DNA of 55,391 nt. Origin: a virus (lineage: Duplodnaviria > Heunggongvirae > Uroviricota > Caudoviricetes). Below, one piece after another: positions 13,342 to 24,748 of this stretch. The position numbers were made by a program, and so were the translations under genes. Numbering within the stretch: the stretch's first letter is position 1; the number at the start of each line of letters is the position of its first letter. The DNA lies in IMG/VR virus record IMGVR_UViG_3300036771_000024, positions 1 through 55,391 of that record. The stretch is one strand, 5' to 3'. The notes beneath the pieces were generated by a model. It saw nothing but the letters and a program-made list of their open reading frames with translations. It was not told where the DNA came from and searched no databases.

Positions 13342-15086
13342 TCATGACTGTGGGGTGCGGAGCCCGAGGTTTTTCGCGGCGAACTCGGCGTATTTCAGGG
13401 CGTGCTCGGCGCAGAGGCTGGTGCCGCTGAAAATGTAGGGGGCAGGCTGACCGCATAGCTGCTTCCCGTCGTAGGAGACGCAGCGGGCGGTAACCTGGAT
13501 TCCCGGCAGGGTGCTGATCATTTCGCTGAGGCTCCTCGGGTGATGGTGACCGGGTTGGGGTGGCCGCAAATGCAGTCGAGGATGGCCGAGGTGTAGGTGT
13601 CGGCGCATCGCTGGCTGCACAGCTCGGCGTAGGTGTGGTTGAGGCATTCGCATTCGTCGCGTTGCAGGATCCATGGGAGCCCGTCGATATGGGCCTGGTC
13701 GAGTCTGAGGGAGCACAGGTCGCAGCCGTAGTAGATGCACCGGTCTTTACCGCACATCAGTCTTGCCCGGCTTCCTGTACGGTCCCGTCAGCGAACGTGA
13801 CCCTGGCGGTGAGTGTTTTCCCGTCGTTGACTTCCGCGCGGGACGGGACGTGCAGGACGCCTGGTCCTTTGACGAGTGCCGTCCAGCGGACGAGGCGTGT
13901 TTCCGCGTCGAGCAGTTCGATGGTAAACGGGAACGAGTCCGCGGGGAGGTCCGTGTACTTGGCTTCGTAGCTCATTTTGTTCATCCGTGCCTGGGTGCGC
14001 ACCGCTGGCATGATGCGACTTCTTCGAGGTTGGCGTGGGTGTGCATGGGGTCGCTGTACCGTTCGGTGAGGTAGTGCAGCATGGAGGCGAGCTGTTCGAC
14101 TTGCCGTGTGCTGGTGCGTACGGTCGTGTCGAGTTCTCCTATCGCTTCGGTGCAGAACGACATGCTGCTCCAGCTGGTCCCGAAGTCGACGTGGCCTGTC
14201 GAGTACCGCCGTGGGGCCGAGTTGTTAGGCTGGGTTTCCCCACGGCAGGTGAGGTGCCCGAACACGAGGGGGTCGTGGCAGATGCAGTTCACCGGTACCC
14301 TCCTGTGCAGACGATGGTCCCGCAGGGTTTCATGCACGTGCAGGGCCCGTAGTCTTCGGTGCACGCCCGGCACAGCGGGTTGGGTGGCCCCGTGTGCACG
14401 GGGCAGCCCGGGTTGAGTTTGATGACCTGGACGGTGGTGCCGGGGCCGAATTCCCCGTCCAGCTCGGGTGCTTCTATGAGCGTGCAGGTGCAGGTGGTCA
14501 TGGTTCCTGCCTGTCTGGTCGGGTGAGGAAGATTTTCAGGGTGCGGCCTTCGTCTTGCAGGTCGATGTCCACGTGGACACCGTGGCCGATGACGAGACGC
14601 GGCGTGTTCGGGTAGACGGACACGCCACCGTGGGTGTGGTCGATGACCTCGACCCGGGTGACGGTGCTGTAGCTGATCATTTCAGTCCCGGGTCTGTGAT
14701 GACGGCCCATAGCCACCAGGCTTCCACGACGAACACGAGGTACCACCAGGGGGATGAGAGCGCGATGAGCGACGTGACGATGATGATCAGGCCGGACACA
14801 AGGTAACCCACCGCCCGGACGCGTTTCCTGTTTCGCTTCTTCTCGTGCCCTTCTGGCATCTGGATAGTGAGCATCAGGGTGCGATCCCTTCGTCCCAGCC
14901 GCCGACCGCATCCCTGAACTGGTGGTATTCGTCCGATTCGCCCAGTTCGTAATCGTTGAGGGACGGGCACCCGGTGAGCGCCCGGACCATCTGGTCGATG
15001 ACCCACATCTTGTGGTGACCCCCGTCGTACGAACCTGCCGGGGCGAACGACAGGGCCAGTTCGATGCGTTCTTCGGGTGTGGTCAT
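13342..15086 (-). CDS. dense run of small, often Cys-rich or membrane ORFs (incl. 13518..13757, 13757..14011, 14289..14501, 14498..14680, 14677..14874, 14874..15086)
   Basis: TGATG/ATGA start-stop couplings; LQDEGRTLKIF and YDGGHHKMWVIDQMVRALTG motifs typical of phage small proteins. Confidence 0.5.
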
Positions 15087-15474
15087 GGTTGTATGTCTTC
15101 CGGTTGATCCTCGGTGTCAGCGTCACGGGTGCTGGGTGCCCAGCGTCCGTCGTCCCAGAGCCAGTGACACCAGCAATACGATGGATGGTTAGGGTTAGGG
15201 CAGGCCATAATCCTGGTCCTCCGTGGGTGCTGTGTCCGTTACCGCGGGCCTCATTGCATTTGCGGTGCGCGGCGCGCAGGTTACTTGAGTTCCTGCGTCC
15301 CAGATACGACTTGGGGAGGATGTGGTCCAGCGACGGTGCCCACGGTGAACTGGTGCCGTACAGGCCCCTGTCCAGGTCCCGGCCGTCAGGGCACAGGCAG
15401 ACAGGCATGCGGCACTGCCAGGCGTCCCGCAGGTACACGGCCTGGTCGTGGCGGTGCGGACGTTTCCTCGGCAT
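14677..15474 (-). CDS. HNH endonuclease (domain about 15474..15230; frame runs on without a stop)
   Basis: WQCRMPVC...SLDHILPKS.LG..NSSNLRAAHRKCNEARGN. Confidence 0.7.
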   Translation of the reverse strand: MPRKRPHRHDQAVYLRDAWQCRMPVCLCPDGRDLDRGLYGTSSPWAPSLDHILPKSYLGRRNSSNLRAAHRKCNEARGNGHSTHGGPGLWPALTLTIHRIAGVTGSGTTDAGHPAPVTLTPRINRKTYNHDHTRRTHRTGPVVRPGRFVRRGSPQDVGHRPDGPGAHRVPVPQRLRTGRIGRIPPVQGCGRRLGRRDRTLMLTIQMPEGHEKKRNRKRVRAVGYLVSGLIIIVTSLIALSSPWWYLVFVVEAWWLWAVITDPGLK

Positions 15475-15490: not shown

Positions 15491-15547
15491 TGGTGGAGGG
15501 CCCGGGGTTCAACCCCAGCCGGAAGCACGGCGTCGGCCGGGCCCCCC
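15491..15547 (-). ncRNA. 57-nt tRNA-Ala-like mini-RNA (acceptor stem + one short arm + T-arm + ACCA)
   Basis: GGGGGGC/GCCCTCC 7-bp acceptor with G3:U70, discriminator A, encoded CCA; CTGGG-GTTGAAC-CCCGG T-like arm; only 22 nt in place of D and anticodon arms. Confidence 0.6.
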
Positions 15548-15594
15548 GGGACCGCCCGCTGATCATGGCAGACGGTGCTTCATCGTCTTACATG

Positions 15595-16399
15595 TTAGAT
15601 GAGCCTGGCGAAGAACGCCCTGATCCGGCTGTTCTGCACGCGGCGTTTGCTGGTCGCCCCGTCGAACGGCTCGTTCAGCTTCGCGATCAGCCGCAGCTCG
15701 GCAGGGTTATCCCAGATCATGTCGGCGTCCAGCATGGATTCGACGTTGTTCTTTATCAGCATCCAGTTGATGTCATCGATCTCCGGTGCCATCGTGGCGA
15801 TCCGGTCAGCGATAGCCCGGGGGTCCTGCTGCACGACGAACGGGATCTCAGGGCTTACTTCTATGAACTGCTCAGGGATCCGGTCGGTTTCGCCGTTGCG
15901 GAACTTAACGCTGAGCCGTTCCAGGTACAGCTTGTGGATGTCATCGCGGACCTTGTTACCCCGTTCCCTCGGGGTCAGGTCGGGATACACCAGGTCGATA
16001 AGATCCTGGATCTGCTGTGTAACAGTGATGCTGCTCACGGTTCTCACTCTCACGCTCGCGGTATTACTCGTTGACTAGGCTTTCCATCCGCATAGGTAGT
16101 TCGATGGTCACGCAGTCTTCGGGCACCTCCTTCATCCCGGGTATGTCGCAGGGCCACGCCTGCGCGAAACCCTTGCCGTCTTCACCGAACACTGTAGCCG
16201 GGGACTGGACGGCTGGTTCGGGGGGGAGGGGCCCGTGCGCGGTGATGATCAGCATGCTATCCCGCAGGGTCAGCTTCACGATCGAGTAGGTGCTGCCGTT
16301 GACGACCACCGTCCCGATCACGGCTGCCCCGTGTTCCACGCCAGGGACAGCAGCGCTACCGCGAGCCCGAGCAGCCCGAGCGCACCGACGAGACACCAC
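15595..16399 (-). CDS. two hypothetical proteins (15595..16053, 16064..16399)
   Basis: Long ORFs in leftward run. Confidence 0.55.
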
Positions 16400-16435: not shown

Positions 16436-16948
16436 TCACAACCCCGATTTCAGGCCGCGCAGCTCACGGCCAGCTTCCAGGTCGGCTATGTCTTCCGGGT
16501 AGAACGGGTTGATCCCCAGGACCGGCACGTGAGCGTGTTCCGCGATGTACGCGGCGGCCTCACCCCAGTCTTCGTAAAACAGGGCGACCGGGATGCCGCG
16601 CCTGGACAGCTCGCGGATGTAATGCACCTTGAACCGCCCGTTCGGGGTGTGATCCCGGTCGGGCCGCATGTGCAGGTAGTCGTACGCGCACGCGTACTTG
16701 TCCAGCCATGCCACCGTCAGGTCCCGGGCGGCCTCGGACCGTCCCGTGCAGATGTGCACCTGAAAATCCTGGTAGTCCAGCCCCATCCGCATGATCGTCC
16801 CGGCGATGGGAAGGTCACCGGGGCAGGCCAGGGAGTATTTCTCCCAGTCCGACGACGGGTCCGCGCGGGGGTTGAGATGCCACCGGTGGCGCGTGTCGGC
16901 CAGGGTGGAGTCCAGGTCGTACACGACCGCTACCTTCGCTTCTTTCAT
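16436..16948 (-). CDS. HAD-family phosphatase, polynucleotide kinase 3'-phosphatase type
   Basis: VVYDLDSTL (DxD motif I), ICTGR (II), LHMRPDRDHTPNGRFK, FYED (IV). Confidence 0.8.
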   Translation of the reverse strand: MKEAKVAVVYDLDSTLADTRHRWHLNPRADPSSDWEKYSLACPGDLPIAGTIMRMGLDYQDFQVHICTGRSEAARDLTVAWLDKYACAYDYLHMRPDRDHTPNGRFKVHYIRELSRRGIPVALFYEDWGEAAAYIAEHAHVPVLGINPFYPEDIADLEAGRELRGLKSGL

Positions 16949-16952
16949 TCTC

Positions 16953-17072
16953 TTATCCTGTCTGCCAGGTCGCACCGCACGACTTGCAACGCCAGTAGGT
17001 TGCCACGCCACCTTTGTGTGCCCGGGTGCCGGTGACTTTAGTTTTCCTGCTTCCGCACTCGGGACAGTTCAC
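16953..17072 (-). CDS. 39-aa zinc-ribbon protein
   Basis: CPECGSRKTKV...WRCKSCGATW. Confidence 0.55.
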   Translation of the reverse strand: MNCPECGSRKTKVTGTRAHKGGVATYWRCKSCGATWQTG

Positions 17073-24402: not shown

Positions 24403-24414
24403 GTCGTCTCTTTC

Positions 24415-24423
24415 TGTTATGAT
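24415..24423 (+). promoter_or_regulatory. extended -10 promoter for tRNA
   Basis: TG-T-TATGAT about 50 nt upstream of tRNA. Confidence 0.55.
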
Positions 24424-24473
24424 GGTTCCTGCCCGGGTCAAAGCCGTGCGGGCCCAGGCCCGGGCACACCCGA

Positions 24474-24547
24474 CGCGGGGTGGAACAGTTCGGTAGTTCG
24501 CTGGGCTCATAACCCAGAGGTCGCGGGTTCAAGTCCCGCCCCCGCTA
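24474..24547 (+). tRNA. tRNA-Met(CAT), initiator type; CCA not encoded
   Basis: CGCGGGG/CCCCGCT acceptor with C1:U72 mismatch, CTGGG-CTCATAA-CCCAG arm with three G-C pairs, GCGGG-TTCAAGT-CCCGC T-arm. Confidence 0.93.
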
Positions 24548-24748
24548 CTAACCGCCGCCGTACACGTACCAGCCCTGCGGCTTCGTCTTCCGGTTGATCT
24601 CGATCACCTCGGGTTCGGCCTTGGCCAGGTCTTCCCGTACGTAGCTTTCACCGAAGGATGCCAGCGCGGATTCCAGGTCGGGTGCTATCGCGGCGGCCAT
24701 CCCGGCTGTGTAGTCGTGGAGCACGTTGGTCCACACGTACAGCTTCAT
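24548..24748 (-). CDS. hypothetical protein
   Basis: Stop codon abuts the tRNA 3' end. Confidence 0.6.
   Translation of the reverse strand: MKLYVWTNVLHDYTAGMAAAIAPDLESALASFGESYVREDLAKAEPEVIEINRKTKPQGWYVYGGG

Follow-up and report, generated by a model that had tools for sequence, protein, structure and literature searches.

A putative tRNA-like small RNA gene with a loop-pairing 5′ leader in uncultured soil phages

Results

A candidate tRNA-like RNA gene in a phage genome

Comparative sequence analysis indicates that a real, small and previously undescribed RNA family is represented on the minus strand of the DNA analysed here (the window, 55,391 nt), which is the first 55 kb of a virus record of 119,391 bases that is 97% complete and has a G+C content of ∼63%, and whose gene content suggests a soil phage of actinobacterial type. 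The RNA is encoded among small genes, with an orphan gene for a 152-amino-acid (aa) protein on one side and an HNH gene on the other. The initial annotation had described a 57 nt alanine-identity mini-tRNA at this position, and its sequence, strand and coordinates (15547 to 15491, minus) proved exact, as did the 7 bp acceptor stem, the G3:U70 pair, A73 and the encoded CCA; absent from it were a 5′ leader, consisting of a hairpin and a loop-pairing strand, and a probable promoter. The full gene measures ∼95 nt and extends ∼37 nt further 5′ than 15491–15547, and we are highly confident of its predicted anatomy, a leader followed by the top half of a tRNA. The features, in the order in which they would be transcribed, are as follows.

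15595–16053, minus strand: gene for a 152-aa all-helical protein of unassigned family, a frequent, non-obligate upstream neighbour
15592–15597, minus strand: TAACAT, a −10-like hexamer that overlaps the upstream gene's stop codon; transcription start predicted near 15585
15577–15581, minus strand: leader strand GAAGC, able to pair with GCUUC of the arm loop; pairing extendable to 7 bp
15551–15576, minus strand: leader hairpin of 9 bp with an 8-nt loop, directly 3′ of the pairing strand
15548–15550, minus strand: linker of 3 nt, its length fixed in all members
15540–15547, minus strand: 5′ strand of the acceptor stem, 7 bp with an eighth pair, C-G, in five of six members; G3 at 15545
15532–15539, minus strand: unpaired connector replacing the D and anticodon arms, ending in an invariant R-A-C
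15518–15531, minus strand: 4-bp arm with the 6-nt loop UGCUUC, in the position of a variable arm or of tmRNA helix 2
15503–15517, minus strand: T-like arm of one U:G and four G-C pairs with the 5-nt loop UUGAA; C56 absent
15491–15502, minus strand: 3′ strand of the acceptor stem, with U70 at 15497, A73 at 15494 and the encoded CCA
14677–15474, minus strand: HNH endonuclease gene (PF01844, E = 5.9e-5), with its ATG at 15474 after a 16-nt spacer

A cloverleaf with D and anticodon arms is absent, ARAGORN and RF00005 both missing the mini-tRNA and detecting the neighbouring tRNA-Met. As had been expected, ARAGORN called only a tRNA-Met at 24474 in the window, and when run at low threshold it returned only noise in the search for the mini-tRNA. 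Rfam 15, searched with E-values up to 10, gave zero matches over any member of the family, YrlA, mascRNA, ribozymes and riboswitches included, and no description of such an RNA was found in the part of the literature that was covered. A pattern of acceptor stem, T-arm and NCCA within 40–100 nt occurs by chance ∼1.8 times per shuffled window, and ∼0.2 times when G3:U70 and A73 are demanded in addition; the mini-tRNA alone is thus near chance level, and homologues were needed to judge its reality.

Homologues in other phage contigs

Five homologues were found in other phage contigs, giving with the window copy six members, all related, with four distinct cores. L006, a Logan contig, was reached through a 54%-identical homologue of the 152-aa upstream protein; its 57 nt are unchanged and are followed by a gene different from that in the window. 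L015, L022 and the divergent L014/L020 were obtained by a pattern scan of JGI metagenomes which demanded U70, A73 and the T loop, so that L015, L022 and L014 cannot test the conservation of these features. The covariance search suggested in the initial annotation was carried out and led to the sixth member, in the IMG/VR record G002; the capsid proteins of this phage and of the window phage are 95% identical. The core is 100% identical among the window, L006 and L015, the 170 nt upstream of it being only 51–59% identical, and core identity of the remaining members is 72–93%, these three showing 79–93% to the window core. Conservation of the core is thus nearly perfect, which would suit an invariable host partner no less than an arms race.

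That the locus might be a decayed tRNA, an att remnant or a chance GC-rich hairpin would agree with the near-chance level of the single sequence and with the likeness of its T stem to that of tRNA-Ala(CGC), yet this is extremely improbable in view of an identity above that of the flanks, the many compensatory changes described below, a T loop unlike that of any Streptomyces tRNA compared and the lack of a match in GTDB genomes. Stem pairing is conserved in the relatives, and the claim that the element is not such a remnant thereby stood. A direct comparison revealed no identity to Streptomyces tRNA ends and none in the GTDB pattern scans, the true host being possibly a different one.

The mini-tRNA is present in one of 37 capsid-related records (0/3 of the near-complete ones) and absent from a further 40, mostly short, records, a patchy spread that may be likened to that of accessory host-conflict genes. 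BLAST against cultured phages and plasmids gave no match, pattern scans of GTDB genomes gave chance matches only, and a model search of 151 actinomycete genomes, a weak search in which 28 candidates were scored per genome, gave no match.

Conserved fold of the RNA

The fold that was scored contains 29 pairs (leader–loop pairing 5 bp, leader hairpin 9, acceptor stem 7, arm 4 and T stem 4). In the six-member alignment 99.4% of the cells are paired and 11 of the 29 pairs change on both sides, as compared with 3.6 two-sided changes in shuffled controls, none of 500 of which reached the observed number, although this test overstates the significance since the sequences are few and related. RNAalifold returned the same nested helices unprompted. 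Furthermore, G002 was found after the fold had been proposed, by a model without the leader–loop pairing, and it contributes one further compensatory pair, in the arm, and retains the leader–loop pairing as G-C. As judged from the alignment, we regard the gene as that of a real, conserved structured RNA.

Within the tRNA-like body, acceptor pair 6:67 changes from G-C to A-U in two members, and three of the four pairs of the arm (GCCG-UGCUUC-CGGC) show compensatory changes across the six sequences. The connector is variable in sequence and has no conserved pairing. The core of the T-like arm is invariant in all six members and, as the T stem never varies, it is supported by conservation without covariation. 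The CCA is encoded in every member (6/6), and the eighth acceptor pair and the U:G at the base of the T stem are each found in five of six, giving an 8 + 5 stack closed by a 5-nt loop.

The T-like arm with a non-canonical loop that had been reported is better drawn with the pairs and loop given above. The single arm originally drawn, CCGG/CCGG with a 14-nt loop, was abandoned, as it is broken in three homologues and has 70.8% of the cells paired and zero compensatory changes across the six sequences. The fold drawn at that time has an energy of −23.3 kcal/mol, as against −36.8 kcal/mol for the long hairpin of minimum energy; the latter was itself rejected, its pairs 8–11 and inner helix being broken in the homologues.

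The 5′ leader and a putative promoter

All five leader–loop pairs are intact in all six members, with A-U replaced by G-C in two (GAAGC/GCUUC becoming GGAGC/GCUCC in L014 and G002), a covariation of one pair and perhaps of one event. The chance of a 5-mer complement in a given 9-nt stretch is 0.5%. In the adjacent leader hairpin six of the nine pairs are changed on both sides and 98% of the cells are paired, and RNAalifold agrees with it. When single sequences were folded, each core preferred other, non-conserved structures by 4–11 kcal/mol; as the leader–loop duplex is worth about −10 kcal/mol, close to this deficit of the conserved fold, the native fold would be helped by the leader. With only 3 nt between the hairpin and G1, the pairing is geometrically tight within one molecule; two molecules may pair in this way, or the pairing may outlast cleavage.

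Cleavage by RNase P is predicted between 15548 and 15547, where the stable hairpin, only 3 nt away from G1, might impede it. If the uncut ∼95 nt RNA were the functional form, the leader would stay on the loop, within or between molecules, and block RNase P, leaving a compact CCA-ended RNA that has its own role, possibly as a two-state switch; such an arrangement would suit a leader covariation as strong as that of the body, the fixed spacing, and the near equality between the energy needed by the supported fold and that supplied by the leader duplex. We nevertheless consider it distinctly unlikely, since the mini-tRNA carries G1, a 12–13-bp acceptor/T stack and NCCA, the usual RNase P signals, and since the leader drifts much faster than the core (46–86% versus 72–100% identity across the members).

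In each of the six members, and in three unrelated settings, a TANNNT-like hexamer (CAGGAT in one member) precedes the pairing strand by 10–13 nt, the background for TANNNT being 1.3% per site in a 4-position window. In G002 it forms part of an extended −10 element, TGnTAGGAT, which faces away from a divergent gene in an unrelated context. A sigma-70 scan found no promoter; we take the hexamer as the putative promoter of the mini-tRNA gene. L015 retains only a 3′ stub of the upstream gene, which is consistent with promoter elements lying in the tail of that gene. A 6-codon leader ORF (15583–15563) was also considered and discarded, as it is lost in L015, L014 and G002. In L014 (1044–1066, plus strand), a possible regulator site is formed by two direct repeats of TGTGCAAG, spaced 12 nt apart, which overlap the RNA promoter predicted there.

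Genomic settings of the RNA gene

The 152-aa gene is found upstream of the RNA in the window, L006 and L022 and, as the stub mentioned, in L015. Its homologues occur without the RNA at five loci (L106, L108, L111, L152 and G002), by which an obligate link between the RNA and this protein is ruled out. Metagenomes yielded at least 30 members of the family, in which the C-terminal motif Q-x-x-R-I-x-x-F-F is invariant; the protein had no Pfam, PHROG or fold match, and its AlphaFold model (pLDDT 83) had no match in the PDB.

The HNH gene does begin just downstream of the RNA, as first noted, but a functional link between the two did not hold: six HNH-homologue loci with DNA lack the RNA, and four different downstream neighbours were observed, so that the HNH adjacency is incidental. 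The HNH frame itself (14677–15474, minus strand) is open for 265 codons, as against 92–166 aa in the homologues; it overruns two small ORFs (15208–15083 and 15086–14874) and continues in frame into a membrane-protein gene, owing to either a lost stop or a chance fusion.

In G002 the RNA precedes a tRNA-Met, and the 152-aa homologue is followed directly by the membrane-protein gene, that is, by an empty site; in L014 the RNA ends at a terminator, a long inverted repeat flanked by runs of A and T, beyond which lie convergent genes. Found in three different genomic settings, the RNA thus acts as its own gene and not as a fixed part of an mRNA; in this group of uncultured soil phages of actinobacterial type, the small-RNA gene stands alone and is movable.

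It had also been suggested that the RNA serves as a punctuation mark, at which cleavage by RNase P and 3′ processing would split a polycistronic message and free the downstream mRNA, here that of HNH. A start codon does follow the CCA within 13–21 nt in four members, and the cut would provide the upstream mRNA with a protective 3′ hairpin. However, L014 has nothing downstream to release, the downstream genes differ, a −10 hexamer stands just before the leader and the conservation goes far beyond what RNase P needs; as the sole function we regard punctuation as quite improbable, and the proposed release of the HNH mRNA was dropped on account of the varied neighbours and the HNH homologues lacking the RNA. 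Masking of a downstream Shine–Dalgarno sequence by the acceptor CCUCC was rejected as well, since it fails in G002 and L014.

Amino-acid identity

The window copy has G1-C72, G2-C71, G3:U70, G4-C69 and A73, and in G3:U70, A73 and CCA it carries the complete identity set for AlaRS. The key recognized by this enzyme is G3:U70 together with A73 (PMC3968760), and given its presence charging with alanine is predicted to be likely. U70 and A73 are found in five of the six members, G002 having C70 (G3-C70) and G73. Of the two finds made without the filter, L006 thus keeps the alanine set and G002 does not. The G002 acceptor is nearest to that of Streptomyces tRNA-Ser. Serine identity depends mainly on a long variable arm, the anticodon being ignored (PMC9976931), and the 4-bp arm is probably too short for it unless extended by the leader. 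As L022 and L014, which flank G002 in sequence, keep the alanine set, the G002 state looks derived. That U70 and A73 changed together suggests a switch of identity sooner than decay, and either such a switch or relaxed selection may underlie the G002 state. Alanine identity therefore reads, in the present alignment, as common and not fixed. Of the alanylatable, non-decoding mimic proposed at the outset, the conserved, non-decoding mimic and the full alanine set of the window copy were supported, and the alanine identity was weakened by G3-C70/G73 in G002.

The alanine identity and the non-canonical T loop resemble tRNAs excluded from translation, a class exemplified by the staphylococcal non-proteinogenic tRNA-Gly, and the RNA could accordingly be imagined to serve, outside the ribosome, as a dedicated source of an amino acid for a tRNA-dependent transferase, for instance a host enzyme that aminoacylates cell wall or lipid. 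The chances of this seem small: no FemAB, Acetyltransf_6, LPG synthase or CDPS gene was found in the 97%-complete genome or in G002, which leaves the alanine donor of the initial annotation without a phage-encoded transferase, and the amino-acid identity is not fixed. Searches of the phage genome for SmpB, RVT_1 and RtcB genes were likewise negative, and the phage encodes no partner enzyme.

Likeness to known tRNA mimics

The mascRNA/menRNA of vertebrates are tRNA-like RNAs of ∼58 nt whose arms are shrunken and which RNase P separates from a structured element upstream; they differ from the mini-tRNA in being eukaryotic, in having CCA added post-transcriptionally and in carrying upstream a triple helix and not a loop-pairing strand. 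YrlA and bacterial Y RNAs, with Ro60 as partner, are bacterial and phage tRNA mimics without an anticodon; the mini-tRNA likewise has none, but its topology is different. With bacterial tRNA-Ala and synthetic Ala minihelices the mini-tRNA shares the first four acceptor pairs, G3:U70, A73 and CCA. It departs from tRNA-Ala in lacking the D stem and anticodon arm, in its 5-nt T loop and in an often present eighth acceptor pair, and the family includes one member without the alanine set. Its T stem is closer to that of tRNA-Ala(CGC), the 5′ strand UGGGG being that of the Streptomyces tRNA, and its connector is faintly closer to tmRNA. Among tRNA mimics, the built-in leader pairing appears to be its distinctive feature.

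The closest precedent is the TLD-only tmRNA of the mycobacteriophage DS6A, likewise of actinophage-type host range, which has no anticodon, one helix, a T arm, G3:U70 and A73, and which was reported to inhibit tmRNA whether chargeable or not (PMC4131195). The mini-tRNA has the topology of a tmRNA TLD (acceptor, stemless D region, helix, T arm), and its connector ends in R-A-C before the helix as do DS6A and Streptomyces tmRNA, which have CGAC there. Moreover, CDS-less tmRNAs of ∼65 bp are known in a 'Standard, no CDS' form (PMC11915505). These points would suit a shrunken tmRNA TLD that titrates SmpB and blocks trans-translation in the manner of DS6A, as the initial annotation had considered, and of that proposal the TLD topology stands. 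The remaining comparisons speak against it. The DS6A RNA measures 83 nt; its T loop is the canonical UUCGAUU, its D loop has 14 nt and its linker 3 nt, and CCA is not encoded. The mini-tRNA measures 57 nt and has an encoded CCA and a loop-pairing leader. RF00023 recognized the DS6A control (43.2 bits) and gave no match at the mini-tRNA locus in G000 or G002; the T loop has 5 nt and no C56, as against the canonical 7-nt UUCRANY loop of tmRNA; the D region is too short, at 8–9 nt versus 12–14 nt, as is the linker, at ≤1 nt versus 3–4 nt; and G3:U70 with A73, expected in all members of a tmRNA family, is lost in G002. Binding of SmpB depends on contacts between D loop and T loop, and every ssrA retains G3:U70. 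We therefore think SmpB titration unlikely and would class the mini-tRNA as a tRNA top-half mimic like the DS6A TLD, outside the tmRNA family.

Discussion

The comparisons suggest the following course of events. Transcription would start from the gene's own −10 promoter, and the leader would keep the arm natively folded, although a misfold is the more stable state. Cleavage at G1 by host RNase P would follow, with exonucleases trimming the 3′ end to the encoded CCA, a processing that we consider fairly likely. Host AlaRS would be able to charge the RNA in most lineages, that of the window copy included. No decoding is expected, and the odd top half, with its 8 + 5 bp and 5-nt loop, would probably be a poor substrate for the ribosome. 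Acting in trans, the RNA could sequester a host protein that binds the acceptor ends of tRNAs, with its acceptor identity tuned to that target; toxins or defence effectors that attack tRNA ends would be the most plausible candidate class. An RNase P-matured tRNA top-half decoy acting in trans is thus what we tentatively favour ahead of SmpB titration, its main rival.

A more elaborate proposal, to which we would give only a modest chance, is that of a phage tRNA mimic of a new class with its own lock. The leader, by pairing with the arm loop, would fold the RNA and, once RNase P has cut, remain bound as a separate strand with which the 4-bp arm becomes a long helix; the identity of the acceptor could be switched (from Ala to a Ser-like G73) to match the host target.

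The mini-tRNA is among the smallest natural tRNA mimics of the bacterial domain with covariation support, and it is invisible to ARAGORN and Rfam. At 95 nt it is an easily made test case for whether tRNA-shaped phage decoys act against tRNA-targeting defences or trans-translation, and it bears both on the minimal tRNA needed by RNase P and AlaRS in vivo and on a possible role of 5′ leaders in chaperoning or gating the fold of a tRNA. The G3-C70/G73 variant of G002 offers a natural control for the role of charging.

Other features of the phage loci

Some 900 nt upstream of the RNA, the window encodes (16436–17011, minus strand) a stand-alone HAD domain of the polynucleotide kinase/phosphatase type (phrog_415, E = 5.6e-29), for which a role in RNA end healing is possible, with no RtcB in the genome. 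In L014 (2307–2387, minus strand) a hammerhead type II match scored 38.4 bits at a cut-off of 37. Outside the window, ARAGORN called an odd tRNA-Pro(TGG) in G000 (83392–83463, plus strand); the surrounding 190 nt hold widely spaced tRNA-like 5′ and T-arm pieces, and it is perhaps an interrupted or atypical tRNA. The tRNA-Met(CAT) genes of the window (24410–24548, plus strand) and of L114 (1369–1500, minus strand) each have a −10-like hexamer followed by a leader hairpin of ∼10 bp, the same promoter–hairpin–tRNA layout as in the mini-tRNA gene, and both hairpins hold a common CCGTGCGGG motif.
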